DNA of 64,000 nt from a virus. The notes beneath the pieces are model-generated. The model made no database searches. It saw only the letters and a program-made list of their open reading frames with translations, and was not told where the DNA came from. This document shows, one piece after another, positions 3,874 to 64,000 of the stretch. A program made the position numbers and the translations under genes. The DNA is taken from IMG/VR virus record IMGVR_UViG_3300005549_000002, positions 1-64,000 of that record. The stretch is one strand, 5' to 3'. Within the stretch, counting starts at the first letter, position 1. Each line of letters opens with the position of its first letter.

Positions 3874-3898
3874 CCTCGGCAGGCGCCACAAAACGCCC

Positions 3899-5731
3899 AT
3901 GGCCGAGACTTCCTACGACGCGACGATCAAGCCGCAGCACTTCGCGAAGCTCGAGCGCTACAAGACGCTCGGCAAGCTCCGCGGGTACTACGCCAGCACG
4001 CAATACGAGGGGCGGCCCGATTTTTTCACCGGCCAGCGAACGCCGCACGACAAGCCCGTGCCGCTGCGCGAGCGTAAGCCCTGCGTCATCTACCCGCTGC
4101 CGAAGAACGCCGTCCACCAGGTGGTCAGGTTCACGTTCGGCGAGAGCCGCTTTCCGACCATCGCCGTCGAGGCTGTCGAGAAAGCCGAAGACGCCGTCTT
4201 CGGGCTCACGCTCGCCGACGACGAGTCCGAGACGCTCGAAAAATACATCGCCAAGCTCATCGAGACGAGCGCCCTCAAGCCGACCATGCGGCGCCTCATG
4301 CGCCCCGGGCTCGCCGTCGGAACCAGCGTCGCCATCCTCGTCGTTCGCAACGGCTGCTTTCGGATCGATATCGCCAACGCCGAAGATTGCATGCCCACTT
4401 TCCAGGGCGGCGACGTCAACGGCGACGTCCTCGCGCTCACCTGGTGCTACCCGTACAACAAGACCGTTCCGAACCGGCAGACGGGCGTGCCCGAGGTGCA
4501 GCGCACCTGGTACCGGCAAGACATTACCGAGGCGGCGTACGTCCTCTACAAGGAAGTCCCCGTCGAAGCCGGCATCGAGCCCGTGTGGCTCGTCGAGAAA
4601 GTCATCCCGCATACCTTCGGGTTCTGCCCGGTGCGCTGGATCCGCAACCTGCACGAGGAGGACTCGGGCAGCATCGACGGGATGAGCCTGTACGATGACC
4701 TGTTCGATGAATTCGACGCGCTCAATTTCGCGCTCTCGCAGCGGCACCGCGGCATCCACCACTTCGGCACCCCGCAGCCTTGGGAAACCGGCGTCGACGA
4801 AGACGACGGACCCGCTCCGACGGGGCGTAAATCCATCGGCACGCCCGGGTTTCAGCCGGCCGGCGGCCCCTCGCCGCACGGCGTGATCCTCGGCGCCGAC
4901 GGCTCGCCCGCGCGCAAGGGCGGTCCCGATCAGGTTTGGAGTTACTCGGGCAAGGAGGTGAGGCTCGGCGTCCTCGAGACGACGGGAAAAGCCTTCGAGG
5001 TTTCCACCCTTCACGTCAACGACATCCGCGCCCGCGTGCTCGAGAGCATGTCGGTCGTGCTCGTGAACATCTCGGAAATCGCCGGGCGCACCCAGCAAGG
5101 CCAGATGTCGGCGAAGTTCCTCGAGCTCGCCTACGAGCCGCTCCTCGCCGTGGTCGACGAGATGCGCCACTGCTGGTGGCCGCTCGGCCTGCAGGCGATC
5201 CTATCGATGATGCTGCGCGCGACCGTCGCGCTCGGCGGCAAAGATCTCTTGATCCCGGGCGCCGAGGGCGCGGCCGCCATCCTGCAGAAATTTCTCACCC
5301 GAACGACGGCGGGCCCGATGTGGGTGCCGCCGACGATGACCCCCAACTGGGGCGACTACTTCGCGGCCGGCCCCGAAGAAATCAACCAGGCGATCACCGC
5401 GGCGAAGACCGCCAACGAAGCGCACCTCGTTCCCATGGAGGACGCGGTGAAATACGTGCTGCCCTACTTCGGGCGCGAGGACGTGCAGGAAGCGCTCGAC
5501 GAAATCGAAGACGACAAGGCCGAGGCGCAAGCGCTCGCGCAAGAAACGGCCATGAACGAAGCGGCCGCGCTCCATGCGGCGGGCGGCATCAAGCCGCCAG
5601 GCGGTGACGGTGCCCCGACCCCGACGAAGCCAACGCCAAGAGCACGACGAGGAGGAAAGTCGAAAAAGGATGCTGCTCGTCGAGGCGGCGGCGCTGGCGC
5701 TCCTTTTGGCAAGACGCCGAAAGGCGGTTGA
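3899..5731 (+). CDS. Portal protein
   Basis: 610 aa directly after TerL; FGFCPVRWIRN and LFDEFDALNFALS resemble SPP1-type portals. Confidence 0.8.
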   Translation: MAETSYDATIKPQHFAKLERYKTLGKLRGYYASTQYEGRPDFFTGQRTPHDKPVPLRERKPCVIYPLPKNAVHQVVRFTFGESRFPTIAVEAVEKAEDAVFGLTLADDESETLEKYIAKLIETSALKPTMRRLMRPGLAVGTSVAILVVRNGCFRIDIANAEDCMPTFQGGDVNGDVLALTWCYPYNKTVPNRQTGVPEVQRTWYRQDITEAAYVLYKEVPVEAGIEPVWLVEKVIPHTFGFCPVRWIRNLHEEDSGSIDGMSLYDDLFDEFDALNFALSQRHRGIHHFGTPQPWETGVDEDDGPAPTGRKSIGTPGFQPAGGPSPHGVILGADGSPARKGGPDQVWSYSGKEVRLGVLETTGKAFEVSTLHVNDIRARVLESMSVVLVNISEIAGRTQQGQMSAKFLELAYEPLLAVVDEMRHCWWPLGLQAILSMMLRATVALGGKDLLIPGAEGAAAILQKFLTRTTAGPMWVPPTMTPNWGDYFAAGPEEINQAITAAKTANEAHLVPMEDAVKYVLPYFGREDVQEALDEIEDDKAEAQALAQETAMNEAAALHAAGGIKPPGGDGAPTPTKPTPRARRGGKSKKDAARRGGGAGAPFGKTPKGG

Positions 5732-20542: not shown

Positions 20543-20856
20543 GCTGCAACTTCAAGCTGCCGACCGTCGCGCTGCCGCTGCCGTCGCTCGCGCTCCCGAA
20601 AATACCGGCGCTCCCGTCCTTCGACCTGCCCGACGTCGACTTCCCGATCAACTTGAAGCTGCCGAAGATCGCGCTGCCGCTGCCGTCGCTGTCCTTGCCG
20701 AAAATACCGGCGCTGCCCTCCTTCGCGCTGCCCGATCTCGGCGAGCTCGGCATCAAGCTGCCGAAACTCCCGACGGTCGCGCTGCCCATCCCCTCGTTCG
20801 GCCTGCCGAAGATCCCGAGCCTTCCGACCTTCAAGCTCGAGTGCCCGTTTGACTAG
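20539..20856 (+). CDS. Leu/Pro-rich three-repeat protein
   Basis: Three copies of (K)LP.(V/I)ALP(L/I)PS..LPKIP.LP(S/T)F.L; ATGA overlap; Cys near each end. Confidence 0.65.
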   Translation: MSCNFKLPTVALPLPSLALPKIPALPSFDLPDVDFPINLKLPKIALPLPSLSLPKIPALPSFALPDLGELGIKLPKLPTVALPIPSFGLPKIPSLPTFKLECPFD

Positions 20857-27557: not shown

Positions 27558-30500
27558 ATGAGTGGGATCCTAGCCAATAGCTCGACCGCCACGATGGTCG
27601 ATGCCGACACGACGCCCGACAATGCGCGGAGCGGCTACGTCACCGCCGACCAGATCACGCTCGGCGTCACGGGCACGCCGGTATCGACCGTGTGGTCGAT
27701 GGCGAAGCCCTCGGCGGAGACCGCGGCTTGCGAGCTGTCGTCGTCGACGGACCCGAACCCGACCTTCACGGCGACGGTCGACGGCTACTTCACCGTCGTT
27801 TGCGTCGTCGACGGGACGACGACCTACGTCCTTCGCATGGCGGTCGCGCGCGTCGGCGTGGTGAGCACGCTCACGGCGGTGCGCATGCTGCCGATCTTGA
27901 ATGCGAGCGTGCCGACGCCGGCGACGGGCCGGACGCTCTTCTCGTCGTCCGATCTCAACGATCTCGCCCAGAAGCTTCCCGACGGGATCACCTATGCGCT
28001 CGCGGGCGGCGCGGGCGGCGGCGGGGGCGGCAGCGGCAGCGGCGCTTACGCCACGATCGCAGCGCTCAAGGCGATCAGCTCGACGCTCCTCGCGACCCTG
28101 GACGACGGCGTCTCGCTTGCGTACGTGACCCCGCTCCGCGCCTGGTTTGTTTGGCAGGCCGCGAGCACGGTCGCCGACGACACGACCGATTTCCTCAGCG
28201 TTGCGGTCACGGTGAACGGCGCCGCGGCGGGGCGCTGGCGCCGGCTCGACTGGGCGCACCCGGCGTGGCGCGAGCAAGCCGCCTGGTTCGTGGATACGGC
28301 GGGCTCGAACGCGAACGACGGGGCAACCGCGCTCACGCCCGTGAAGACGGACGCGGAGATCCAGCGGCGCTGGGGCGCGGGGGTGCGGGCGCGGCTCACG
28401 GTGCCGGTCACGATCACCTACGCGCAGGCTCCCGTCGGGCAGACCAACTACCTTTTCGAGCTCGGCTCGGGCGCTGCGCTCAGCATCGTCGGGACGCCGA
28501 CCATCACCAAGCCCGGCACGATCCTGACGGCAGTGCAGGCGCAGGTGCGGACCGCGGGGGCCGAGCTTGCGTGGGCCATCACGGCGACTGGGCTCGACGC
28601 GACGGATGTCGGCAAGCTCGCCTTCATTACGGCGAGCGGCACCGGCGCCAATGTTGGCGCCTACGCGATGGTGCTGAAGGACGAGACGGGCGGCAAGCTC
28701 CGCGTGTCGCCTTTCGGGACCGTTGACGCGACGACCGCGGCGTTCACCCAGCGCACGCCGCAGGTGGGCGACACGATCGAGATCCGCACGCCGACGACGC
28801 TCAGCGTGGGGTCGATCGATTGCCATGGTGCAGCCGCCGGCGTAACGTCGGCCGGCCTTAACCGGGTGCTGTTCGATTCGGTTACCCTTGATTCTGCCAG
28901 CACGGCCGACGGCGGGATCTATGGTCGCAAGGCGAGCGTCTATTACGCCCGGTCGATACTCAACGGGATCACCTGGATGGGTGAGGGCACCGGGGGGAAA
29001 CCGCCGCACCTGATGCGCGGTGGTGGGATCGGGACGGCGCAGCTGTACGTGCGCAGTGGCGGCGCCAACAGCATTACTTGTCCAGGCTGCCTTGGCACGG
29101 TGTCCGTGGGCGCGAACGGGCACGCCACGATCACGGCCGACACCTATTTCCAGAACAGCGGACTCACGGTTGCGCGGGGAGCCTTCGTCAACTCCCAGGG
29201 ACTGGCGTTCTTCGACAGGAGCACGTCGGACGCCTCGTTGGCAGTGACCCCCGGCGGCTTTTGCCAGCAGAGCGGGGCTGTGCCCGATTGGGGCGCGGCG
29301 AACGCCGGCCACGGGTTGAATGTCCAGTCGGGCTCCAGCTACGTGTACGTGACGAAGCCGACCATCAACAGTGGTCTCGGCGCCGGGCGCGAAGCGAAGG
29401 TCGGCGGTACCGACAAGCTCTACTCAGCAGTTCCGTACATCGAGCCCGCGAACAACGCCGTCTTGGTCCTCAACGACGGCACCGACGGGCCCGCGGCGTA
29501 TTACCAGACCTACGCGACCATCGCGCTCTTGAAGGCGATCACGGCGACGCGGCTCGGTAACCTCCAGGACGGGCAGCGCGTCTACGTCGCGACGCTCCGC
29601 GCGTGGTTTGCCTGGCACGCGGCGAGCGCCGTTGCGGACGACACCGTCGCTTTCCTTTCCGTTGCTGTCACCGCGAACGGGGCAAGCGCGGGCCGGTTCG
29701 TGCGGCTCGGCTGGGCGCACCCGTCGTGGCGGGCGCAGACGGCGTGGTTTGTCAGCACCGCGGGGAGCAACGAGAACGACGGGGCGACGGTGGGCGCCCC
29801 CGTGCTGAGCGACGAGGAGATCGCGCGGCGGTGGGGCGCGGGCATGGTGCTGACGGTGCCGGTCACCGTCACCTATGCCCAGAGCCCGACGACGACGACG
29901 AACCTCGACGTCGGCTACGCGGACGGCGGCTCGCTCTCGCTCGTCGGGACGCCGACGGTGACGAAGGCGGGTACGGTCATCTCGGCAGTGCAGGCGCAGG
30001 TGCGCACGGCCGGATCGGAACTCGGCTGGGCCATCACGGGGACTGGTCTCGGTGCAACCGAGGTCGGCAAGATCGCGGTCATCACGGCGGGCACCGCGAA
30101 CAACATCGGGGCGTACGCCGGCATCCTGAAGGACGAAACCGGCGGCAAGGTCCGCATTTCGCCGTTTGGTAAAGCAACCGCCGACGGTCTCTTTTCTCAA
30201 GTGACGCCGGTCGCGGGCGACACCGTCGAGATCCGCGAGAATACGACCGTTCTGAAGGTCGCTTTCATCAACGTGCAGGGGCTCTCGCAGCTCGCGGCCG
30301 TCGCGAGTCCCGTGCAGAATGTCGTTGTCTTCGACTCCCTTCTCCTCGACGGGAGCGTCGGCGGTAGCCTCAATGGCGGAATCGTTCGCAACGAAGGAGC
30401 TCAGATCTCCTACGTGAGGTGCACGCTGCAAGACCTCATTCTTGCTAGCGCGCCGTCCACATTCTCCAAGCTGCAGTCGGTTTGCGGTGGGCTGATCACC

Positions 30501-33500
30501 GCCGGCGCCGGGGGAGTCGACCTTCGCGGCAATATCATCATGCGTCAGGTCGGTGTGCTCAACACCATCATCTCTGAATCGGCACCTACTGGAAATGCGA
30601 GCTTTCAGGCCGACAATTACTTCCAGAATTCACAGCTCAGCATGAACGCCGGCTGTCCGGCGGTTACCCAGGGCATCGCTTTCTTCGATCGATCCTCGAG
30701 CGACGCCACCTTCACCTTGGGAGCCTCGTCGAACGGCGGAAGCGCCTACGTGCGCCAGACGGGCGCCGTTGCCGACTGGGGCACCGCTAACGCCGGGCAC
30801 GGTCTCGTCGTGCGAAGCGCGAGCTCGTACGTCTACGCGACGAAGCCGACGATCAACTCGGGGCTCGGCGCGGGTCGCGAAGCACTTATCGGCGGCACCG
30901 ACAAGCTGCTGAGCGCCGTCCCGTACATCGAGCCGGGCTGCAACGCCATGGTGACGTCGGCCGATAACATCGACGGCCCGGCCGTCTTCTATTCGGCTTA
31001 CGCCACCATCGCGCTCTTGAAGGCGATCTCGGCCAACCGCCTCGCCGGCCTTGTCAACGGGCAGCGGGTGTTTGTGACCACGCTCCGCTCGTGGTTCGCG
31101 TGGGACGCGACCAGTGCGGTGGCAGACGACACGACGGATTTCCTGTCGGTGGCCGTGACCGCGAACGGCGCCGCGGCGGGGCGTTTCGTCCGGGTCCTTT
31201 CCGACACGCATCCGTCATGGGTCGCGCAGACCGCCTGGTTTGTCAGCACGGCGGGCAACAACGAGAACGACGGGCTGACCTTGGGCACGGCCGTCAAAAC
31301 CGACGCGGAGATCCAGCGGCGGTGGGCTGGCCCTGGCAAGCGCGGGCGCATCGCCGTCACGGTCACGATCACCTACGCGCAATCGCCGGCCGGCGAGACC
31401 AACCTAATATTTGAAATCATCACGGGCGGGCAGCTGCGGCTTGTCGGCACGCCGACCGTCACCAAGGCCGGCACCGTTCTGACGGCGGTGCAGACACAGG
31501 TCCGAACGGCGGGCGCCGAGCTCGGATGGGCGATCACGGGCACCGGGCTCGGTGCGACCGAAGTCGGCAAGCTCGTCGCTATCACGGCGAGCGGCACCGG
31601 CGCGAATGTCGGCGCAACGGCGATGATTCTTAAGGACGAGACGGGCGGCAAGCTCCGGATCTCTCCGTTCGGCACGCTGGCCGAGGCGACGACCGTGTAC
31701 ACCAACATCACCCCGCAGGTAGGTGACACGATCGAAATCCGCGACGTGGCGGCAACGACGCTTACCCTTGGGAAGATCGAAGCTTACTCGGCAGCGAGCG
31801 TCCAGATCCCGGCGGCCTTTGTCTGCGACTCGCTGATGCTCGACGGGGGTGCGAGCGCCGTTGGCAGCGTCTACGCCGCCGGTCCTCTTGTCATCTATAC
31901 CCGTTGCATTCTCAGCAAAATGATTTTGAACGGGCACAGCGCCCCTTCGACAACGCCGCATTCGGTGCGCGGCGGCGGCATCATTGGGGCAGTGTTCAGC
32001 ATCCGGAATTTGGCTGCGTTAACGTCAGTCGGAATTCTAGCGCCGCTTACGATCCGCCAGGGCGGCAACGTGTTTTTACAGCAAGACTGCTACTTCCAAA
32101 ACGCTGGTGTGACCGTGGCCCTTGGCGGTATGGCGCAAGGGACCGGCAACGCTTTCTTCGACCGCTCGACCGCAAGTTCCAGCCTCTTCGTCCAAGAGGG
32201 CGGGCGGTACGTGGCGACGGGTGCGGTGCCCGACTGGGGCACGGCCAACGCTGGCTACGGCGTCGTCGTGCAAAGCAACGCCAGCTACGGGTACGCGACG
32301 AAGCCGACGATCAACAGCGGCCTCGGCGTCGGCCGCGAGGCGATTATCGGGGGCACCGACAAGCTCTACAGCGCGGTTCCTTACGTCGAGCCGGCGAACA
32401 ACGCCGCGTTGGTGCTCACCAACGGCACCGACGGCCCCGCGGTCTTCTATTCGGCCTATGCGAACGTCGCCGCGCTCAAGGCGATCTCGTCGAACCGCCT
32501 GGCGGGTCTGCAGGACGGCCAGCGCGTCTACGTCGCGACCCTCAAGTCCTGGTTCGCTTGGCACGCTGCGAGTGCCGTCGCCGATGACACGACGGATTTC
32601 CTCTCTGTCGCGGTGACGGCCAACGGCGCGAGCGCCGGGCGCTTCGTTCGGCTCGCCGACGCGCATCCCGCCTGGCTCGCCCAGACGGCGTGGTTCGTCA
32701 GTACCGCGGGCTCGAACGAGAACGATGGCGCGACGGTGGGCGCTCCGGTCCTGACGGACGCCGAGATCCAGCGGCGGTGGGGTGCGGGCGCGCGGCTTTC
32801 CGTTCCGGTGACGGTCACGTATGCACAATCGCCAACCGGTATCACCAATTACAATGTCGAGATTGTCACCAATGCCTCGCTCACCTTGGTCGGCACGGCG
32901 ACGGTGACGAAGGCGGGCACCGTCATCTCGGCGGTGCAGGCGCAGGTGCGCACGGCGGGCTCTGAGCTCGGGTGGGCGATCACGGCCACGGGGCTCGACG
33001 CGACCGATGTCGGGAAGATCGCCGTCATCACGGCTGGCACAGCCGGAAACATCGGCGCATATGCGGCTGTCCTGAAGGACGAGACGGGCGGCAAGGTGCG
33101 CGTTTCCCCGTTCGGTAAGTTCACCGCGAACACATCGCCGTTCACGCAAGTGACGCCGGTCGCGGGCGACACCATCGATATTCGTGACCCTACGACGCTA
33201 AAGGTGGGGACGATCGAAGTCAGGTCGTTGACGAACGACAACTTGACGGGAACCGTCGTCAACAACTATCTGATGTTTGATTCGATCCGCGAAAGCGGCG
33301 ATGCCAACGATGGCAATGGCGGCGTTTGCGCGAACCGCGTCACCGTCTTTCATTGCGTGCGTGGCGCCATCGATGCCATTTCGCTCAGCGGCAGCACCGG
33401 CAGCCTCTCGTCGCACAAGTTATGTGGTGGACTCGTGCACAACGCGAGTCCTTCATTCGGCGTCGTGTTCCGCGGTGGCACCGTCGGCACCGTGCACCAG

Positions 33501-33899
33501 AGTGGTTGCCTTACGTCGATTACAGCATCGGCTGGATCGCTATGCATCTTGCAGGCTGATACTTATTTCCAAAACTGTGGTCTCACGATCAGCAGAGGAG
33601 GCGTCGCCAACACACAGGGCGTCGCGTTTTTCGATCGTAGCAGTTCGAACAGTTCCCTTTTGGTTTCCGCGTTGGGCATGTGTCAGCAAACCGGCGCAGT
33701 GCCCGATTGGGGGGCCGCGAATGCCGGCCATGGTTTGACGATTCAATCCGCAGGCTCCTGCGTTTATACGACCAAGCCCACGGTCAACTCGGGGCTCGGC
33801 GCCGGGCGCGAGGCGCAGGTCGGCGGGACCGACAAACTCTACTCGGTTGTCCCCTACGTCGAAGCCACCAACAACGCAGCGCTCGTCCTACTCGCGTAA
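27558..33899 (+). CDS. Giant tail fibre/adhesin with four ~480-500-aa tandem modules
   Basis: Modules start at 28047, 29511, 30999 and 32457 (YA(T/N)(I/V)A.LKAI) and end GGTDKL.S.VPY(I/V)E. Confidence 0.75.
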   Translation: MSGILANSSTATMVDADTTPDNARSGYVTADQITLGVTGTPVSTVWSMAKPSAETAACELSSSTDPNPTFTATVDGYFTVVCVVDGTTTYVLRMAVARVGVVSTLTAVRMLPILNASVPTPATGRTLFSSSDLNDLAQKLPDGITYALAGGAGGGGGGSGSGAYATIAALKAISSTLLATLDDGVSLAYVTPLRAWFVWQAASTVADDTTDFLSVAVTVNGAAAGRWRRLDWAHPAWREQAAWFVDTAGSNANDGATALTPVKTDAEIQRRWGAGVRARLTVPVTITYAQAPVGQTNYLFELGSGAALSIVGTPTITKPGTILTAVQAQVRTAGAELAWAITATGLDATDVGKLAFITASGTGANVGAYAMVLKDETGGKLRVSPFGTVDATTAAFTQRTPQVGDTIEIRTPTTLSVGSIDCHGAAAGVTSAGLNRVLFDSVTLDSASTADGGIYGRKASVYYARSILNGITWMGEGTGGKPPHLMRGGGIGTAQLYVRSGGANSITCPGCLGTVSVGANGHATITADTYFQNSGLTVARGAFVNSQGLAFFDRSTSDASLAVTPGGFCQQSGAVPDWGAANAGHGLNVQSGSSYVYVTKPTINSGLGAGREAKVGGTDKLYSAVPYIEPANNAVLVLNDGTDGPAAYYQTYATIALLKAITATRLGNLQDGQRVYVATLRAWFAWHAASAVADDTVAFLSVAVTANGASAGRFVRLGWAHPSWRAQTAWFVSTAGSNENDGATVGAPVLSDEEIARRWGAGMVLTVPVTVTYAQSPTTTTNLDVGYADGGSLSLVGTPTVTKAGTVISAVQAQVRTAGSELGWAITGTGLGATEVGKIAVITAGTANNIGAYAGILKDETGGKVRISPFGKATADGLFSQVTPVAGDTVEIRENTTVLKVAFINVQGLSQLAAVASPVQNVVVFDSLLLDGSVGGSLNGGIVRNEGAQISYVRCTLQDLILASAPSTFSKLQSVCGGLITAGAGGVDLRGNIIMRQVGVLNTIISESAPTGNASFQADNYFQNSQLSMNAGCPAVTQGIAFFDRSSSDATFTLGASSNGGSAYVRQTGAVADWGTANAGHGLVVRSASSYVYATKPTINSGLGAGREALIGGTDKLLSAVPYIEPGCNAMVTSADNIDGPAVFYSAYATIALLKAISANRLAGLVNGQRVFVTTLRSWFAWDATSAVADDTTDFLSVAVTANGAAAGRFVRVLSDTHPSWVAQTAWFVSTAGNNENDGLTLGTAVKTDAEIQRRWAGPGKRGRIAVTVTITYAQSPAGETNLIFEIITGGQLRLVGTPTVTKAGTVLTAVQTQVRTAGAELGWAITGTGLGATEVGKLVAITASGTGANVGATAMILKDETGGKLRISPFGTLAEATTVYTNITPQVGDTIEIRDVAATTLTLGKIEAYSAASVQIPAAFVCDSLMLDGGASAVGSVYAAGPLVIYTRCILSKMILNGHSAPSTTPHSVRGGGIIGAVFSIRNLAALTSVGILAPLTIRQGGNVFLQQDCYFQNAGVTVALGGMAQGTGNAFFDRSTASSSLFVQEGGRYVATGAVPDWGTANAGYGVVVQSNASYGYATKPTINSGLGVGREAIIGGTDKLYSAVPYVEPANNAALVLTNGTDGPAVFYSAYANVAALKAISSNRLAGLQDGQRVYVATLKSWFAWHAASAVADDTTDFLSVAVTANGASAGRFVRLADAHPAWLAQTAWFVSTAGSNENDGATVGAPVLTDAEIQRRWGAGARLSVPVTVTYAQSPTGITNYNVEIVTNASLTLVGTATVTKAGTVISAVQAQVRTAGSELGWAITATGLDATDVGKIAVITAGTAGNIGAYAAVLKDETGGKVRVSPFGKFTANTSPFTQVTPVAGDTIDIRDPTTLKVGTIEVRSLTNDNLTGTVVNNYLMFDSIRESGDANDGNGGVCANRVTVFHCVRGAIDAISLSGSTGSLSSHKLCGGLVHNASPSFGVVFRGGTVGTVHQSGCLTSITASAGSLCILQADTYFQNCGLTISRGGVANTQGVAFFDRSSSNSSLLVSALGMCQQTGAVPDWGAANAGHGLTIQSAGSCVYTTKPTVNSGLGAGREAQVGGTDKLYSVVPYVEATNNAALVLLA

Positions 33900-34099: not shown

Positions 34100-37000
34100 A
34101 TGCCCATCTCCGCGCACTTCACCGTTGACGGGGTCGCGAACCCCGGCGAGCACATCGTCGCCTACGGGGCGACGGTCACGCTCGCGCTCACGTCGATCAC
34201 CGCCGCCGACGTCATTTCTTGGCAGGTGCTCGTCGCGAGCGAGCCCGCGTACACGATCCCGACCATCACGCCCGGCGGTACGCCGCCCGGCTCGACGGCC
34301 TCGTTCACGTTCCCGGCCGATCCGGGCGACGACGTGGGGCGGTCGTTCCGCGTGCGCGCGGTCGTCTCCAATGGGCAGGAGACGGATTTCGAAGATGCGC
34401 TGATCGGCGCCGCGAACATCAACGGCATCGTTCCGCTCTGCCCCGGCGAGCAGTTCGAGCGCCATGCAACGCACGGGTGGGGGCCGGTCATCAATGCGCT
34501 GCTCGCCGGCGGCGCGGGCACGCCCGTGTCGCTTGGCGGCGACGTCGTCGGGACGACCGCCGCCAACACGGTCGTCAAGGTCAACGGCGCGTCGGTCACG
34601 ACGGCAGGGGCCGCTGCCGTCGGCGACGTGCTGCAGCTCACGGCGCCCAATACGCTCGGCTACGCGAAGGTCGCCGCCGCCTCCCTTGCGGCCGGCGCGG
34701 CAATCCTCGGGCAAGCGCTCATCTTCAACGGCACCGCGTGGGCGGCGGGCAACGACTTCGCCGCCCGTAACCTCGCCACCACGGGCACGCTCGCCGCGGG
34801 CGCGACGACGGTCACGGGATCTCTGACGGCGGGGGTGAATACGGCCAAGGCCGTGCTGAATAGCTACAGCGCGACGCCGACGACGCACGGCGCCCTCTGG
34901 CTCGGCGCGATTGTCGCGAGCTCGACGAACCAGGCGCTCGCCGGCGACGGCACGAGCACGTCGATCAACGGCATCACGCGCGTGCAGGTCGCCGCCTCGA
35001 GCGTGGTCAAGGCGGTCTTCACCGCGTCGGGGCTGCGCATCGGCGACGCGACGGACCCCACGACGACGCTCGACGTCCTCGGTCGCGCGACGATTGGCGT
35101 CAGCACCGCCAAGGTCATTCTCGACAGCCACCCAGACGCCCCCACGAGCAACGCGTCGGTCTGGCTGGCGCAGGCTTCCCCGAGCGGCACCAATTACGTG
35201 CTCAACGGGAATGCGTCGACGACGATCCTGAACGCCCCGACGCAGGTGAGGTTCGCCGTCGCAGCCGCGGCGGTCGGGAACTTCACCGCGACCGGGCTCC
35301 GCGTAGGCGATGCGACGACGGCGACCGCGACCCTCGACGTCGTCGGCAGCGCGAAGGTAGGGGCCAGCTACCAAGCCACCATCGCCAGTTTGCCGGGGGC
35401 AACGACGACGCACGCGGGGATGTTCTTTGCCACGCCTTCGGCGACGAACTACGCCTTTTTAGGCAACGCCGCCGACTCCTGGGTCAACGCTCCGACCGGC
35501 AAGCTCTACCTTCAAATCGGGGCGGCCGCCACGGCGAATTTGACTTCGACGGGCCTGCGGATAGGCGACAACACAACCGCGACCGAGAAGCTCGACGTCG
35601 TCGGGCGAGCGGTCATCGGCGTCGGCGCGGGCAAGGCGACGCTCGATAGCTTGGCGGGGTCCACCGCCACGCACGGCGCATTGTGGCTGGGTGTCGCCGC
35701 GGCAAGCGGAACCAATTACACCATCTTTGGAAACGGGAGCACCGACCTTCGCTTGAACGCCCCCGCCTCGGGGATGGGTTTCGATTTCACGGCGGGCAAT
35801 AGCCAGCTGCTCGCGCGCCTCACGGCGACGGGCTTGCGGGTCGGCGACATCACGAGCGCGACGGAAAAGCTCGACGTGGTCGGCCGCGCGAAGATCGGCG
35901 TCGGTGCCGGCAAGTGCGTTATCGATAGCGACATTTCCTTTCCGGCGTCCGACGCCGTCATTTGGCTCGGCCCCATCACACCATCGGCGACCAACGGCGC
36001 GCTTCGCGGCGACGGCACGACCTATACGATGCTCAACGGGGCATCGAACCTCCGCTTTCGCACGGCGAACACCGGCCGCGGGTACTGGGACGCAACCGGC
36101 CTCAAGATTGGCGCGGAGTCGGCAGCGACCGAGTGCCTCGAGGTCGTCGGTCGCGCGAAGATCGGCGTCGATACGGCCAAGGTCTTCATCGATTCGCTTA
36201 TCGGCGCGCCCGCAAGTTGGGGCGGAATCTGGATGGGGCTCACCCCCTCAGGTTCTAACTACATGCTTGCTTCGAACGGATCGGAGACGCGATTAAACGC
36301 GCCTTCGACGCTGGTGCGCATAGGGGTAGGGCTCAACTTCAAGGTCATCTGTAATTCTGTCGGCACACAGGTTGCGCTTAACGGATCCGGTGCGGTAACC
36401 GATCAGCTCGAAGTGGTCGGCACGGCGTCCGCGTCGGTGGACGTCATCGCCAACAGCTTGGCTAACGGTAAGGCGCGCTTGGCGGGGCTCGTCGGCAGCA
36501 CCACGACGCACGGCGCGCTGTACCTCGGCAACATCACGCCATCGGCGACGAACGCGACGCTCTTCGGCAACGGCACGACCGACACGCGCCTGTCGGTGCC
36601 GGGCGCCGGGGCGATCGACATCTACCGCAACAACGCCGGCATCGCTCGCTTCACGGATACGGGCCTCAAGATCGGCGCGGCGAGCAACGCGGCGGCCGCG
36701 CTCGACGTCGGCACGAGCGGGCAGGTGCTCGCCGGGTTCGTCACGTGCGGGGCCACGCCCGCCGCGAGCGGCGCGCTGCGCCTCACCAACAACACCGGGC
36801 TTTACGCCCGCAACCAGGCGAACAGCGCCGACGTACGCATCGTCGATCTCGACACGAACAACAAGACCAACGTCGGCTCCGCGACGACCAAGCAGAGTTT
36901 CAGCGGCGCCCACGAGGTCGTTGTCCGCAACGTCACCGCCAGCTTCACGGTCGACACGACGACGATGGATCAAACCATCTGCGTCGGGACGGGGCTCGGC

Positions 37001-37240
37001 AACGTCACCGTCACACTGCCCACGCCGACGGTGGGCCGGCGCATCACGATCAAGCGTACGTCCGGCACCAATGATGTGATCGTCGATCCCGGCGCGAACC
37101 TGATCGACGGCTCGGCCTTCAACAGAAACCTCGTGACGGACCCGATCGATGGGGAAATCGAGCCCTACCTCGCGCTCGAGGCGGCGACGGTATCGTACTG
37201 GGCGATCGTCGCGCACTGGTCGGTGCTGATGGGCGAATAG
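34100..37240 (+). CDS. Tail fibre protein with ~80-90-aa repeats
   Basis: Repeated TATGL(R/K)(I/V)GD...EKLDVVGRA.IG; LGGDVVGT segment; C-terminal TVTLPTPTVGRRITIK. Confidence 0.75.
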   Translation: MPISAHFTVDGVANPGEHIVAYGATVTLALTSITAADVISWQVLVASEPAYTIPTITPGGTPPGSTASFTFPADPGDDVGRSFRVRAVVSNGQETDFEDALIGAANINGIVPLCPGEQFERHATHGWGPVINALLAGGAGTPVSLGGDVVGTTAANTVVKVNGASVTTAGAAAVGDVLQLTAPNTLGYAKVAAASLAAGAAILGQALIFNGTAWAAGNDFAARNLATTGTLAAGATTVTGSLTAGVNTAKAVLNSYSATPTTHGALWLGAIVASSTNQALAGDGTSTSINGITRVQVAASSVVKAVFTASGLRIGDATDPTTTLDVLGRATIGVSTAKVILDSHPDAPTSNASVWLAQASPSGTNYVLNGNASTTILNAPTQVRFAVAAAAVGNFTATGLRVGDATTATATLDVVGSAKVGASYQATIASLPGATTTHAGMFFATPSATNYAFLGNAADSWVNAPTGKLYLQIGAAATANLTSTGLRIGDNTTATEKLDVVGRAVIGVGAGKATLDSLAGSTATHGALWLGVAAASGTNYTIFGNGSTDLRLNAPASGMGFDFTAGNSQLLARLTATGLRVGDITSATEKLDVVGRAKIGVGAGKCVIDSDISFPASDAVIWLGPITPSATNGALRGDGTTYTMLNGASNLRFRTANTGRGYWDATGLKIGAESAATECLEVVGRAKIGVDTAKVFIDSLIGAPASWGGIWMGLTPSGSNYMLASNGSETRLNAPSTLVRIGVGLNFKVICNSVGTQVALNGSGAVTDQLEVVGTASASVDVIANSLANGKARLAGLVGSTTTHGALYLGNITPSATNATLFGNGTTDTRLSVPGAGAIDIYRNNAGIARFTDTGLKIGAASNAAAALDVGTSGQVLAGFVTCGATPAASGALRLTNNTGLYARNQANSADVRIVDLDTNNKTNVGSATTKQSFSGAHEVVVRNVTASFTVDTTTMDQTICVGTGLGNVTVTLPTPTVGRRITIKRTSGTNDVIVDPGANLIDGSAFNRNLVTDPIDGEIEPYLALEAATVSYWAIVAHWSVLMGE

Positions 37241-48866: not shown

Positions 48867-50174
48867 TCACGCAGCGCCCGCGGTACGCTCGGGAACGGCC
48901 TCGGCGACGAGCACCGATCCGTCCTCGATGATGATGGCGCCCTCGTCGCCGTTGCCGACGCGCTCGATCCAGCACTGCGCCCCGGTCTCCTTGGCGAGCT
49001 CGGCGAGGAGAGCGAGGCTCGCGGCGTCGAGCAGCGAGCCCTCGCGGATGAGCATGACCTTGACGCGCGGGTTCAGGGCGGCGCCGATGGCGACCGACAG
49101 GCGCAGGCGCTCGGCCTGGCTCGCCTGCGCGAGCGGCACGCCGCCGAACGTCGGGCCGGCGTCGTCGAAGCCGAGCCCTTCGATGGGAAACTTCACCGCC
49201 GCGAGGCGCTCGGCTTTTTCTGCGTCGAGATCGGCGATGACCTCGGAGAGCTCGTCGCCCTCTTTCGCCTTCGCGGTCGCCTCCTGCTCGAGCCGATCGT
49301 AGTAGAGGTTGGCGCGCACCTTGTGGTTGGTCGCCTCGGCGCTGCTCAAGGCACTTTGCAAGTCGTCGACGGGCGCGGGCTCGGGGGGCAGCGCTTCCTC
49401 GGCGGCGAGGATGGCTTTCACCTGCTGCTCGCGGCGCACCTTGGCCTCGGCGAGATCGCGTTCGAGCTTGGCGATCTGCTCGTCGATAAAACCGAGCTTG
49501 GCGCGGTCCTTGTCGACGAGGGCGAGCAACGTGGTGCGCGAGCCGACGGCGTTGCGGTGGATCTGCAGCTTCTCATTGAGCGCGGCGATGTCGACGAGCT
49601 GCTTCGGGGCGCCGGGGTGGCGCTCGGTGGATTTGAGGACCGCCTCGAGCCGCTTGACCTCTTTGTTCACTTCGGCGCGTTTCTGGTAGGCGACGTCGCG
49701 CGCGCTCGCGAGATCGGACAGATCGAGCCCGACCATCTTTTTCAGGAGCTCGTCCTGTTTCGGCGCCTCCATGCGGGAGAACGCGAGCGGATCGAACGTC
49801 ACCTTGGCGCAGAGACTGTCGAGCAGCTTTTGTGGGCTCGCCTTGGGCACGCCGTCCGCGCCGCGCACGACGAGCTCGGTGCCCTTGGCCGTGAAGGTGC
49901 GTTCGATCTTGAACTCGACTTCGCCCGTCTGGGAATTGCCGAGACCGACATCGACGTCGGCCTTGCGCGTGCCGTGGCGGACGGGTTCGAGCGGGATCGC
50001 CCGAGCGCCCGAGAGCGCCATCTCGATCGAATCGAGGATCGAGCTCTTGCCTTGGCCGTTGCGGCCGCCGATGAGGATGGTGTCGCCCTCCGGCGTGATC
50101 GTGACGGCGCGCAGGCGCTTCACATTGGAGACTTCCAGAGAAAGGATGTGGAGGGGAGTCTTCTCGTTGCTCAT
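48867..50174 (-). CDS. SMC/Rad50-like AAA ATPase
   Basis: Walker A GRNGQGKS, long coiled coil, signature-like ASQAE, IREGSLLD. Confidence 0.8.
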   Translation of the reverse strand: MSNEKTPLHILSLEVSNVKRLRAVTITPEGDTILIGGRNGQGKSSILDSIEMALSGARAIPLEPVRHGTRKADVDVGLGNSQTGEVEFKIERTFTAKGTELVVRGADGVPKASPQKLLDSLCAKVTFDPLAFSRMEAPKQDELLKKMVGLDLSDLASARDVAYQKRAEVNKEVKRLEAVLKSTERHPGAPKQLVDIAALNEKLQIHRNAVGSRTTLLALVDKDRAKLGFIDEQIAKLERDLAEAKVRREQQVKAILAAEEALPPEPAPVDDLQSALSSAEATNHKVRANLYYDRLEQEATAKAKEGDELSEVIADLDAEKAERLAAVKFPIEGLGFDDAGPTFGGVPLAQASQAERLRLSVAIGAALNPRVKVMLIREGSLLDAASLALLAELAKETGAQCWIERVGNGDEGAIIIEDGSVLVAEAVPERTAGAA

Positions 50175-50188
50175 GTCGGGCCTTCCTT

Positions 50189-51268
50189 TCAACCGTCGGC
50201 GCCTGGTTCGGGGGCGCCGTCTTTGCCCGCGGCGGGATCGCCCTGGGGCTGCGCGCTCGTGTCCGCGGGCTTTGCTTCGCCCGCCTTCGCGCTCTTCACC
50301 GCGGCCGCCGTTCTGGTTTTGTGCTTGTCGAGGACCTCTTGCACCTTTTTGGCGGCCGCGTTGTCCTTCTGCTCGCCCTCGGCCGCCGGCGCCTTCGCGT
50401 CGACGATCGCGGCCCAGGTCGTCTCGCCGTCGCGGATGGCCGAGTGGATGCCGCGAAGGTCCGCGAGCTGCGCCGGCTGCAGATCGCCCTCGGTGCCGAG
50501 GTATTCCTTGAGCTGGTCGGGCATCACGCCGAGGAGCGCGAAGGCGTCGAAAATGCGCTTCTTGGCCGCGGCCGGATCCGTGGCATCGGTCTTGCGCTGC
50601 GTCGCGCGGCACGCCGCTTCGCAATCGTCCTGGATGTCGCCGGGCAAGAGGCGCAGGACGCCGTTGCGCAGCGCCTTGGAGATGAAGGCGTTGGTTTTGT
50701 TGAGCACCTCGTCGTCGGTCGCGGGCACGATGAAGACCACGTCGCCGTAGGAGTTCATGCGCTCCGCGAGCGGGCGCTGCCCTTGCTTCAAGAATTTGCG
50801 CTCGACGGTTTTGGTGACGTGCACGTCCTGCTCGATCGTCGAGTTCGCCTCGAGATCCATCACCGTGATGCGCACGATCGCCTTCTCGTCGTCGTCGTAG
50901 ATGCTCGTCGCCGACGAGTAGAAATTGGTGACGTTGCGGATGGCGGCTTCGGCGAACCGGACCGAGAGCCCCTCGACGAAATTCTTCTCATAGACGCCCG
51001 TCTCCGCGTTCTTCTTACTGCCGACGGGCTTTCGGTAGATGGCGGCTTCGGCAAAGCCGGGGCGCGCGCACTCCTTCATGAGTTTGCTCCGCACCACGTC
51101 CCAGTCGCGCGGCTGTTTCATCGCGAGGACGTAGCGGGCCTCGATCGAAGCCTTGGCCGCCGCGGCGATCGCGCTGGAGGCGGTCTCGTGCTGGGCCTGC
51201 ATCTCGCTGCTCGAGAAGCCTTGCCGCACGATGGCGCCGCTATTGTTATTCGGATCTTGCTGGGTCAT
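50189..51268 (-). CDS. Putative recombination/strand-annealing partner protein
   Basis: AAGGAG RBS; between YqaJ and ATPase; PRD, GLSVRFAE, SKALRNGVLRLLP. Confidence 0.55.
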   Translation of the reverse strand: MTQQDPNNNSGAIVRQGFSSSEMQAQHETASSAIAAAAKASIEARYVLAMKQPRDWDVVRSKLMKECARPGFAEAAIYRKPVGSKKNAETGVYEKNFVEGLSVRFAEAAIRNVTNFYSSATSIYDDDEKAIVRITVMDLEANSTIEQDVHVTKTVERKFLKQGQRPLAERMNSYGDVVFIVPATDDEVLNKTNAFISKALRNGVLRLLPGDIQDDCEAACRATQRKTDATDPAAAKKRIFDAFALLGVMPDQLKEYLGTEGDLQPAQLADLRGIHSAIRDGETTWAAIVDAKAPAAEGEQKDNAAAKKVQEVLDKHKTRTAAAVKSAKAGEAKPADTSAQPQGDPAAGKDGAPEPGADG

Positions 51269-61748: not shown

Positions 61749-61980
61749 CATTTACGACAAGCTCGCCGCGCACATCAAGCACTGGCGCAAGATCAAGGGC
61801 AAGGGCTTTAACGCCAACCCGTTCGCCGAGCTGAACGAAAAGGTGCGCTGGCTCTGCTCGTACGCCGACGGACAGGAGAAAGTGCTGCTGCGATTCCTCT
61901 TGCGGCTCGAAACGATCGGATTGGAGCAGACGAAACGCGCGCTGAAACCACGCGCGACGAAAGGAAGGGGAGCGACGTAA
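61732..61980 (+). CDS. Hypothetical basic protein
   Basis: GGAG RBS; 82 aa; directly upstream of the RAMP-like gene. Confidence 0.55.
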   Translation: MRTTNDIYDKLAAHIKHWRKIKGKGFNANPFAELNEKVRWLCSYADGQEKVLLRFLLRLETIGLEQTKRALKPRATKGRGAT

Positions 61981-62019
61981 GCAGCACGCAAAACGGTAAC
62001 GGCAAGGAGGATAGGGACC

Positions 62020-62592
62020 ATGCAAAAGATAAAACTGCGACTGAACGGTGTGCGACCTCTCATGATGCACAACGGGCGACTCGCCGACCCGATGAACGAA
62101 TACGTGCGCGAGATGAAGAAGATTACCGGCAAGGGCAAAAAGAAAACGGACGATGACCTTCTCAAGCTGCGCTGGCTCGAATGGCGTGGTGGCCTCTACG
62201 TCGATGAGAAGGGTGCGCCGTGCATGCCCGGGGACAACATCCACGCAGCGCTGGTCGAGGGTGCGCGCAAGCAGCGCCTCGGCAAAGACGTCGATGCGGC
62301 GATCATGGTGGATGAGCCCGAGTTCCCGCTCAAGTACGAGGGAACGCGAGACGTGCAAAAGCTCTACGACGATCCGCGGTTCGTCGACGTGCGTGGCGCC
62401 GTCGTTGGCAAAGCGCGCATCATGCGAACGCGGCCGATCTTCCGGAATTGGTCCCTCGACATCGAGGTGAATTTCGACCCATCGCTCGTGAACGAGGCGC
62501 AGGTCATCGAGGCTGCACGCGCATGCGGAGAGCAGATCGGTCTCGGCGATAACACGCCGCGCTTTGGTCGCTTCTTGGTCGAGCAGATTTGA
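62020..62592 (+). CDS. Stand-alone RAMP/Cas7-like RNA-binding protein
   Basis: N-terminal strand KIKLRLNGVRPLMMH, CMPGDNIHAAL (cf. RAMP iPgss.kGal), strand WSLDIEVNF, C-terminal glycine-rich loop GEQIGLGDNTPRFGRFLV; AAGGAGG RBS. Confidence 0.7.
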   Translation: MQKIKLRLNGVRPLMMHNGRLADPMNEYVREMKKITGKGKKKTDDDLLKLRWLEWRGGLYVDEKGAPCMPGDNIHAALVEGARKQRLGKDVDAAIMVDEPEFPLKYEGTRDVQKLYDDPRFVDVRGAVVGKARIMRTRPIFRNWSLDIEVNFDPSLVNEAQVIEAARACGEQIGLGDNTPRFGRFLVEQI

Positions 62593-62596
62593 GCAT

Positions 62597-62997
62597 GGCG
62601 GTGCGTGGCGCGGCGATGCGTGTCATGGTCGGACCAGGTCGGGTCAGGCGACGCAAGGCATGGAGTTCTCGGCTATCGGAAGGTGGCCGTGAGCTCTGTG
62701 GTTGGGTTTGGCGTGGCGGTGCACGTCAAGGCGGGTCTCGGCAGGGCGCAGCATGGCAAGGAGCTGTCCGCGATCGAGAGATTGCGAACAGCACTGTTGG
62801 TGCGGTCGGGATGGGTCTGGTTGGGCAGGGCCAGGATGGGCATGTCCAGTCCCGTCATGGCTCGGTTTGGCAGGAGTTTGGCAAGGAGCGATCGCCCGTT
62901 CGAGAGGATGGGCGGTTGCACTATGGCGGTGCGTGGCCTGGCTCTGTTGGCCGTGGCGCGATCGGTCGCGGAAGGGCAGGGCGCGGCAAGTTGAGGA
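62597..62997 (+). ncRNA. Array of four GGY-NN pentamer tracts separated by GNRA hairpins
   Basis: Tracts 62597-62661, 62700-62759, 62799-62884, 62925-62989; hairpins 62663-62696, 62763-62792, 62888-62919. Confidence 0.85.
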
Positions 62998-63233
62998 GCT
63001 GTCAACAGTCGACGAGCCGAACTCGTGGTGAACGCGTGGGGACGTCTAAGCTCGGGCCTGACGACGTCCGCGCGGTACTCGGGCTCCACGATGTCGGCGC
63101 CATGCGCAAGGACATAGCTGAGCTGTTCGGAATAGCCGGCAAGTCCGTGGAGCGAATCGTCTATTTGGCGTCACGTGGAAGCACATCCACGAGGAGCGGA
63201 GCCGATGACCGCGAAGAAGCGCAAACCGAGTGA
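62991..63233 (+). CDS. Small HTH protein or remnant, like the C-terminal HTH of phage HNH nucleases
   Basis: RGERVGTSKLGPDDVRAV...KDIAELFGIAGKSVERIV; start codon uncertain (TTG 62991). Confidence 0.4.
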   Translation: MRSCQQSTSRTRGERVGTSKLGPDDVRAVLGLHDVGAMRKDIAELFGIAGKSVERIVYLASRGSTSTRSGADDREEAQTE

Positions 63234-63387
63234 GGTGGAGGTGGTTGCGATGGCGATGTGGGCGCAAGGCAACTGGCATCATATGGCCCCGCCGCAGATT
63301 GAATGGCGACAGCGGCCGCTGGGCACAAGGGCGATGTATCGCGGCTTCGCTCGCGCATTCCTCCGCGCACTGAGGGGGGCTACTTGA
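63205..63387 (+). CDS. Small hypothetical protein
   Basis: GGAG RBS; MTAKKRKPSEVEVVAMAMW. Confidence 0.5.
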   Translation: MTAKKRKPSEVEVVAMAMWAQGNWHHMAPPQIEWRQRPLGTRAMYRGFARAFLRALRGAT

Positions 63388-63406
63388 CCGCCGCCGAAAC
63401 CAGACG

Positions 63407-63547
63407 CGCGTTCGAGAGACTGCGGGCAGCGCCTGTGGTGTCGGTCGCTTGGCGGGGTTGGCTCTGGTCCGGCATGCTCGGGCATGTCCCGGCACGGCTC
63501 CGGCAGGTCCGGGCATGGCACGGCGTGGCAAGGCGAGGGCCTTCGCC
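63407..63547 (+). ncRNA. Fifth, detached GGY-NN unit
   Basis: GAGA-capped hairpin 63407-63424, 16 pentamers at 63451-63531 ending GGCAA, short hairpin 63532-63547. Confidence 0.75.
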
Positions 63548-63567
63548 GGCGTTGAAAGGAATCGACA

Positions 63568-64000
63568 ATGAACGAATCGGTCAAAGTAGCACTTGTTCAC
63601 CCGATAGACTTCGAGTCGATCCGAAAGGGCGACGCCATCGGGCAAGCACAGATCGAGATCATTTCGCAGGTGCGCTACTCGGAAGATCCCGAGCGGTATC
63701 GAATCGAGCAGATGCAACTGAAAGGACAGATTGAGCAGCATCGACCCGATCTCGCAGTGGTCATGTCACGGCGATGCCTGCGCGTGCTCACCGATCCGGA
63801 GCTCGTCGGCTATCGGCAAACACGTCAGGAGCGCGACGTTCGATCGCTGAAACGCAACGTTGCCCTCGGCGCTCGCGTCGACCGATCGCAGCTTGGTGAG
63901 ACCGAAGTGAGACGTGCCGATTGTCTCGACATGCACATCGCGGTGAGCGCCATCGAAGCGGATCGGAATCTGCGGGAGTCGAGAAAGAAGATTCGTGAAC
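63568..64000 (+). CDS. Hypothetical protein, candidate partner of the RAMP/array module (runs off the window)
   Basis: GAAAGGA RBS, ATG 63568, open for 144 codons: MNESVKVALVHPIDFESIRKGDAIG... Confidence 0.7.
   Translation, partial: MNESVKVALVHPIDFESIRKGDAIGQAQIEIISQVRYSEDPERYRIEQMQLKGQIEQHRPDLAVVMSRRCLRVLTDPELVGYRQTRQERDVRSLKRNVALGARVDRSQLGETEVRRADCLDMHIAVSAIEADRNLRESRKKIRE

Follow-up and report, generated by a model that had tools for sequence, protein, structure and literature searches.

VIPR (Viral Interference Programmable Repeat) systems are RNA-guided DNA-silencing systems that were first described in 2026 preprints (10.64898/2026.04.26.720920; 10.64898/2026.04.26.720927). According to the first preprint, the type II system of Escherichia phage SUSP1 has ~100-nt RNAs, called vrRNAs, that are built of GGY-NN units and end, in the SUSP1 clade, in a pseudoknot 3′ tail; published vrRNAs typically hold 9–16 units, and the SUSP1 system targets a satellite (10.64898/2026.04.26.720920). 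At the protein level, the second preprint, on the cryo-EM structures, describes that W178 of the SUSP1 Vipr protein stacks on G2 and that R179 contacts Y3 (10.64898/2026.04.26.720927). Here, we describe a locus found in the IMG/VR record IMGVR_UViG_3300005549_000002, a contig of 72,612 bp whose positions 1–64,000 constitute the stretch of DNA that was analysed (hereafter, the window). We are highly confident that this locus is a VIPR system carried by a complete temperate tailed phage. This kind of system is already known, having been in print since April 2026, and the locus is a further example of it. Its main components, as predicted from the sequence, are the following.

62020–62592, + strand: vipr, predicted minimal Cas7-like RAMP of 190 aa with an ATG start, assigned through PDB 36pp_D, phrog_4652 and AlphaFold2 (AF2)/Foldseek.
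62597–62699, + strand: putative vrRNA1, with 13 GGYNN units (62597–62661) and a hairpin tail (62662–62699).
62700–62798, + strand: putative vrRNA2, with 12 units (62700–62759) and a hairpin tail.
62799–62924, + strand: putative vrRNA3, with 15–16 units, a 1-nt slip after GAGTT, a last GGCAA unit at 62880–62884 and a hairpin tail (62885–62924).
62925–63035, + strand: putative vrRNA4, with 13 units (62925–62989) and an atypical tail without significant structure.
63451–63547, + strand: putative vrRNA5, with 10 units (63451–63500), a 1-nt slip, 7 units (63502–63536) and a short terminal hairpin.
63568–64047, + strand (the part within the window reaches 64000): candidate vap1-like accessory gene of 159 aa, located after the array.

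The 190-aa protein can be assigned, on the grounds of homology and predicted fold, to the Vipr proteins, that is, to minimal Cas7-like RAMPs. In a phmmer search of the PDB sequences, it matched entry 36pp_D (‘SUSP1 Vipr protein’) with an E-value of 9.9e-31 and from end to end, as residues 2–188 of 190 were aligned with residues 2–188 of 202, and it was placed in phrog_4652 by comparison with PHROGs (E 1.4e-56), with no match to any Pfam family. This agrees with a first-pass annotation of the window, made from the sequence alone, in which a likeness to VIPR systems had been suggested and the protein had been described as RAMP/Cas7-like. The predicted structure points in the same direction: the AF2 model, obtained with an alignment of 50 relatives, has a predicted local distance difference test score (pLDDT) of 94.6, and its top folds in Foldseek are Csm3/Cas7 proteins of type III, VII and IV effectors (probability 1.0, TM-score ~0.5), with 73 PDB chains at E≤0.001 in a structure library that is older than the Vipr entries of the PDB. 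The gene is present as a single copy in the genome.

Several residues that are important in SUSP1 Vipr can also be recognised in the protein encoded here. The thumb and the G-loop, which were located via the alignment to SUSP1 residues and not by inspection of the model, contain residues that are invariant in the 50 relatives, namely R138 in the thumb and the G-loop positions G174 and G183-R184-F185. Of the residues named in the cryo-EM preprint, H17, R138 and D177, which with W178 and R179 contact GGY in SUSP1, are conserved in the phmmer alignment, as are K33, G88 and K89, and there are conservative replacements of R39, E71 and K82, which correspond to K40, D72 and R83 here. The G-loop itself (62553–62564, residues 178–179) reads G-D-N-T-P-R-F-G-R-F, with GDNT where SUSP1 has GDWR. 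Because 44 of the 50 relatives have an aromatic residue at position 178, where 3 have N, and 41 have an arginine at position 179, where 6 have T, the N-T pair is considered peculiar to the small clade to which this protein belongs.

The second component of the locus starts immediately after the gene. The vipr stop codon is a TGA at 62590–62592 and the first GGC unit is found at 62597, leaving a spacer of 4 bases, as the first-pass annotation had noticed when it reported that the DNA becomes 5-nt periodic at this point. In the tracts, self-identity at lags of 5, 10 and 15 nt reaches 0.40–0.57, against ~0.25 at other lags, and no lag-5 signal is observed in the coding sequence at 62020–62592 (0.243). 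The hand counts of exact in-register GGY triplets given in the same annotation were reproduced for tracts 1 to 4 (8/13, 8/12, 10/15 and 7/13, respectively), but the 12/16 that it gave for tract 5 has to be replaced by 7/10 and 6/7, the counts before and after a 1-nt slip. It was also right in stating that the remaining triplets are one mismatch away and that the NN positions vary freely: every non-GGY unit within the runs is a single mismatch from GGY and, over the 71 units, NN (positions 4–5) has an almost even composition that includes 15 of the 16 dinucleotides. In these units, position 1 is a G in 90% of the cases and position 3 is C or T in 95%. Position 2 is a G in 79%, making G2, the base stacked by residue 178 in SUSP1, the least conserved base of the scaffold here.

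The arrays are confined to this part of the genome and to one strand. When both strands of the whole contig were considered, windows of 12 pentamers with at least 6 in-register GGY were found only in the five + strand tracts, with a maximum of 5 GGY per window on the minus strand. Similarly, the array criterion of the preprint, at least 4 exact YNNGG/GGYNN units, selects only three places in the contig, at 62697, 62816 and 63509. The five tracts are, judging by these patterns, probable vrRNA genes built of GGY-NN units, each ~100–125 nt long. No Rfam family was matched at E≤1 in 61900–63700, no sigma-70-like promoter was found, and terminators were detected at chance level only. Regarding the individual tracts, vrRNA1 (62597–62611) and vrRNA4 (62925–62939) have an identical 13-base start (GGCGG TGCGT GGC, with AT before it), which suggests that the 5′ end of one of them was duplicated from the other. 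In addition, vrRNA4 may have been truncated by a downstream insertion, and the hairpin of vrRNA5 lies just ahead of the ribosome-binding site that serves the following gene.

At their 3′ ends, vrRNA1–3 all have GGCAA-GGAGC, then the two arms of a stem around a TCGRRAG loop, and finally GCNCTRYGG. When these three tails were aligned with nine more from L001, an IMG/VR contig whose Vipr is 94% identical to the one in the window, the 12 sequences fitted a 13-bp hairpin in which 93.6% of the positions are paired and both sides have changed at 10 of the 13 pairs. None of 500 shuffles reached the observed values, and slid controls were 35–51% paired. A conserved covarying hairpin caps three of the five tracts. 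For instance, the tail of vrRNA1 folds with −28.6 kcal/mol (z −6.5). The tail of vrRNA4 gives a fold with z +0.54, which is not significant, and it is not matched by the tail model (R1), which in the window recovers only its three training tails. The short hairpin of vrRNA5 has a z of −2.29, equalled by 2 of 200 shuffles; in L001, similar short-hairpin tails precede both vipr and the downstream gene, with non-significant folds (z −1.19 and −0.86, respectively).

The first-pass annotation had regarded vipr as a ‘lone’ gene. This cannot be maintained, since the 159-aa gene at 63568–64047 appears, from profile comparisons, to be a divergent vap1-like gene that has been displaced behind the array. 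With tblastn, its relatives were detected at 12 of the 80 viral Vipr loci compared, always just downstream of vipr or of the arrays, and the gene is retained in L001. The family formed by these sequences (A3, 13 sequences) was linked by hhalign to the phrog_5926-like family (A4, 10 sequences) with a probability of 95.7% and an E-value of 1e-8 over 111 columns, against a probability of 0.5% when A3 was compared with the Vipr alignment as a control. The gene that directly follows vipr in wV8 and LESphi2 belongs to phrog_5926 and, from this position and from the ‘vipr-vap1’ segment mentioned in another preprint (10.64898/2026.10.15.759431), we infer that phrog_5926 is vap1.

No match to phrog_5926 was obtained anywhere in this genome, 12 of the 13 members of the accessory family lack a PHROG match, the 159-aa protein had no BLASTP match to the genes of wV8 and LESphi2, and a word-index search with the same protein returned only itself and the L001 copy. 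Its AF2 model (pLDDT 86.9) consists of a small N-terminal alpha/beta part followed by a long helical hairpin; it had no Foldseek match at E≤0.001, and the matches from VIA-align were all generic ones to helical hairpins (Z≤8.9, residues 75–150). The model speaks neither for nor against a winged-helix or helix-turn-helix (HTH) domain. Other candidates for the vap role were rejected because their relatives occur in 0 of the 80 Vipr loci: the 82-aa gene upstream and two small open reading frames (ORFs) located in the gap of the array, which are the following.

63036–63233, + strand: small ORF of 65 aa in the gap of the array, with a GTG start; weakly HTH-like.
63205–63387, + strand: small ORF of 60 aa that overlaps the previous one, with an ATG start and no family match.

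The resemblance of the first of them to Pfam HTH_7 (E 0.024) falls under the family cut-off, and the search for relatives of both was made with tblastn; they are absent from the array of L001 too.

The association between vipr and GGY arrays is not restricted to this phage. Same-strand arrays adjoin vipr in all six of the first loci compared, including those of wV8 and LESphi2, versus neither of two control loci, and they were also found in 75 of 80 further viral Vipr loci (minus-strand arrays in 2 of 80). Two of the conditions under which the annotation would have given up its reading, a fold other than RAMP and homologues without adjacent pentamer tracts, are thus contradicted by the results. 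The G-loop pattern, when used alone for the search, retrieved relatives in 444 viral contigs. In the five loci of the 80 where the criterion did not detect a GGY array (L093, L122, L136, L143 and L150), variant scaffold triplets may be in use.

L001 permits a more detailed comparison. In its locus (3420–5220), vipr is preceded by one vrRNA and followed by about ten, making 11 compared with the 5 found here. While the DNA of vipr is 85% identical between both contigs and the tails are 72–84% identical, the guide regions have only 56% identity, which is about the level expected from the shared scaffold alone, a pattern of guide turnover in which the scaffold is conserved. Arrays of this kind expand, contract and are rewritten quickly. 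Another observation concerns the register of the units, as all the slips except that of vrRNA5 correspond to 6-nt units ending in TTT: GAGTTT in the window (62869–62879) and CGTTTT, CGCTTT and GTCTTT in L001 (about 4185–4210 and 4570–4580). The slip of vrRNA5 is an additional C at 63501.

The locus resembles the SUSP1 system in having a Vipr that is homologous end to end (~34% identity to the Felixounavirus copies), ~100-nt GGY-NN vrRNAs with a structured 3′ tail, arrays on the same strand as vipr, and a phage context without cas genes. Additionally, the accessory gene is related to the gene that follows vipr there, although the similarity is remote and, in SUSP1, this gene is found directly after vipr instead of after the array. 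Besides the sequence of the G-loop, other differences are the tail, which here is a 13-bp hairpin with a GNRA-like cap and in SUSP1 a pseudoknot, and the two extra small ORFs within the array. Pseudomonas phage vB_Pae_LESphi2, which we assume to be a member of the P. fulva clade described there, is also temperate, and it has a Vipr with 41% identity, three GGY arrays adjoining vipr and a phrog_5926 gene in the vap1 position. By contrast, its arrays are upstream of vipr and vap1 directly follows that gene, whereas the order here is vipr, array and vap1-like gene.

Regarding the type, the locus is tentatively considered most like type II, because its best match among proteins of solved structure is the SUSP1 Vipr, a vap1-like gene is present, no nuclease or helicase gene was found at the locus, and Rfam detected no ribozyme, the hammerhead included.

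The relationship with CRISPR-Cas is limited to the fold. Csm3, type VII Cas7 and type IV Csf2, which belong to class 1 systems, have the same fold as Vipr, and they likewise advance along the guide RNA in fixed steps of one subunit each; here, however, the step would be of 5 nt with only 2 guide bases, and the identity to Csm3 is 11–14%. In accordance with the first-pass annotation, which had seen no CRISPR repeats and no cas1, cas2 or cas3, PADLOC found no match to cas families among 82 ORFs (E≤1e-5) and Tandem Repeats Finder detected no CRISPR-like array. There is no cas1, cas2, cas3, cas10 or other RAMP at the locus, the Cas7-like fold being the sole feature in common with class 1 CRISPR-Cas.

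What the present analysis provides is a list of parts and their conservation; the functional steps are taken by homology from the SUSP1 and P. fulva systems. In the proposed model, the array would be transcribed together with vipr and cut into ~100-nt RNAs. One Vipr protomer would bind each pentamer, sequestering GGY and displaying NN, and the resulting filament would read double-stranded DNA as NN-x-NN-x, with one base skipped per unit. The formation of an R-loop triplex would then block transcription, probably that of genes carried by a competing phage, prophage or satellite, and the vap1-like protein would probably enhance silencing. The scheme that had been suggested in the first-pass annotation (a Cas7-like polymer, GGY as a handle, NN as the guide, hence a discontinuous code, several different guides and an action by binding, plausibly on competing phages) coincides with the description of VIPR in the preprints.

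The targets of the guides were searched for in several sets of sequences. According to the first preprint, targets have at least 80% of NN matched, with a 1-nt skip, in rival mobile elements (10.64898/2026.04.26.720920). On the 72.6-kb genome of the phage itself there are no self-targets, as the best sites match 0.56–0.79 of NN, within the null distribution of shuffled guides; the preprint describes self-targeting by own guides as likewise absent in the published systems (10.64898/2026.04.26.720920). The guides of the window matched nothing over the shuffled-guide null in L001–L004, and the vipr locus of L001 was unmatched. Neither did the guides of L001, some of them crudely trimmed, match this genome over the null.

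The scans in sequence collections were either exact or allowed up to 3 mismatches, so their negative results are weak, and they covered vrRNA1–4. Six exact scans of viral contigs gave no match for the full vrRNA1, the full vrRNA4 or the 10-unit cores of vrRNA1–4. The best cellular relative of the terminase, with 35% identity, is found in a Polyangiaceae metagenome-assembled genome (MAG), and the phylum of this MAG was picked as that of the candidate host solely on this basis; vrRNA1, with as many as 3 mismatches allowed, had no match in any of its 301 genomes. A 9-unit core of vrRNA1 had 69 matches in metagenome contigs, which, when extended, reached 24/26 in one case and 18–21/26 in 66, the other 2 being cut by the ends of the contigs. 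The match of 24/26 was judged to be due to chance, as it falls in a 119-aa ORF for a housekeeping-like membrane protein in a contig with 56% GC. In 185,579 species genomes, the 10-unit core of vrRNA2 had no exact match, and two hits obtained with other cores were rejected as being at chance level: one of vrRNA4 (20/26) in an ATPase gene, presumably RarA-like, and one of vrRNA3 (22/30) in a Cyclobacteriaceae MAG with 40% GC.

Some observations count against the reading given above. Two of the residues that contact the RNA in SUSP1 differ here, with N for W178 and T for R179, and exact GGY triplets are found in only 46 of the 71 units. The register slips by 1 nt in vrRNA3 and vrRNA5, and vrRNA4 lacks a structured tail; as a consequence, some of the guides may be defective. 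The hairpin tail is a plain one, in which no pseudoknot like that of the SUSP1 clade was seen, and, since the tail model matches only 1 of 82 other Vipr loci, it must be considered clade-specific. The accessory gene has no PHROG or Pfam match of its own, and it is linked to vap1 by profile-profile comparison only. Finally, no RNA run containing this stretch turned up, the single run that did being of DNA and perhaps its source, and the scans made gave none of the guides a convincing natural target; it is because of the latter that a role against rival phages is something we infer.

Part of these observations would be explained if the locus were a decaying or partly disabled one, VIPR by descent but no longer able to silence. 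Apart from the replacement of the aromatic residue and the arginine of the family by N178 and T179, the 25 of 71 units that are not exact GGY, the unstructured tail of vrRNA4, the slips and the lack of a target, two unrelated small ORFs have been inserted in the array. Nevertheless, the vipr ORF is intact, the tails of vrRNA1–3 hold their pairing through compensatory changes, and the N-T G-loop is kept, together with a larger array of 11 vrRNAs, in the 94%-identical L001, which argues for selection rather than decay; consequently, we consider decay very improbable. Even harder to accept is that the tracts encode protein and that the 5-nt period is incidental, an explanation to which we give practically no credence. 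It is true that open frames of 129–214 aa run through the tracts, which would give Gly/Arg/Trp-rich products at 62589–63233 (214 aa) or 62605–62994 (129 aa), and that a heuristic based on GC content at third codon positions (GC3) retained 62605–62994, but stop codons are simply absent from G-rich pentamers and the period is 5 nt and not 3 (at 62593–63000, the self-identity is 0.235 at lag 3 and 0.404 at lag 5). Furthermore, the L001 tracts differ by indels and by scrambled NN, the tails covary as RNA, and such arrays lie beside vipr at 75 of the 80 loci.

That the system works but, instead of being directed at rival phages, is aimed at the host chromosome, as a means of gene regulation that benefits the phage, or is a decoy or anti-VIPR array, is a reading that we regard as unlikely. 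The absence of matches in the six exact scans of viral contigs would favour it, and vrRNAs against host repeats and other VIPR loci are described in one preprint (10.64898/2026.10.15.759431). However, the scan of the 301 genomes of the candidate phylum was negative, the exact 10-unit cores had only the two chance-level matches in species genomes, and the guides of the window do not match the vipr locus of L001. A different idea, which we put forward tentatively and hold to be rather doubtful, is that the window and its near relatives form a distinct sub-branch of VIPR in which the code of the scaffold is relaxed or altered. It is based on the GDNT G-loop, the GTC, TGC and GGA units (35% of units), the 6-nt ‘NNNTTT’ units that shift the register, the GNRA-like hairpin tail, and the position of the vap1-like gene behind the array and a short-hairpin vrRNA. 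If the rule of recognition were indeed altered, for instance in the bases displayed around the slips, the published rules for target prediction would fail for this sub-branch, which would fit the absence of any target found.

The VIPR locus is located in the replication and recombination module of the phage, two genes past rusA. The contig, which has terminal repeats and 66% GC, represents the complete genome of a temperate tailed soil phage, and it contains genes for a terminase, a portal, a major head protein, a tail sheath, a tape measure, a baseplate and an endolysin, as well as a serine integrase, a RecE-like exonuclease, DnaB and RusA. No relatives of Vipr were found in cellular genome contigs in the relatives search using this protein. 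Elsewhere in the genome, an AAA ATPase (48867–50624, minus strand) belongs to phrog_1499 and was labelled by PADLOC as mad3, with a PtuA- and LmuB-like N-terminus. Two more genes lie past the window, at positions 66034–67781 of the contig (+ strand; L009 5035–6779): one resembles type II methyltransferases and the other matches mad3 in part. These three genes may be phage-borne defence or anti-defence genes. Two huge ORFs that follow the baseplate genes on the + strand, at 27558–33899 (2113 aa) and 34100–37240 (1046 aa), have no PHROG match at E≤1e-5 and are probably tail fibre or host-recognition proteins. There is also a tandem repeat at 20547–20735, with a period of 102 bp, 1.9 copies and 85% match, within a minus-strand ORF.

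VIPR is a recent addition to the systems of RNA-guided DNA recognition, with a gapped code, and it has been proposed to be older than CRISPR. The known picture of VIPR is unchanged by this locus, whose value lies in cataloguing and in the choice of variants to test. It is one more well-preserved case, from a temperate phage with a complete genome of high GC content, and it brings a second, divergent vap1-like family, present in 12 of 80 viral Vipr loci, which standard family libraries do not recognise. It also illustrates how the GGY-reading residues of the G-loop vary in nature, together with a hairpin-type tail that covaries strongly, and, as the array of L001 has been almost wholly rewritten, the comparison between both phages offers a natural view of the turnover of the guides.

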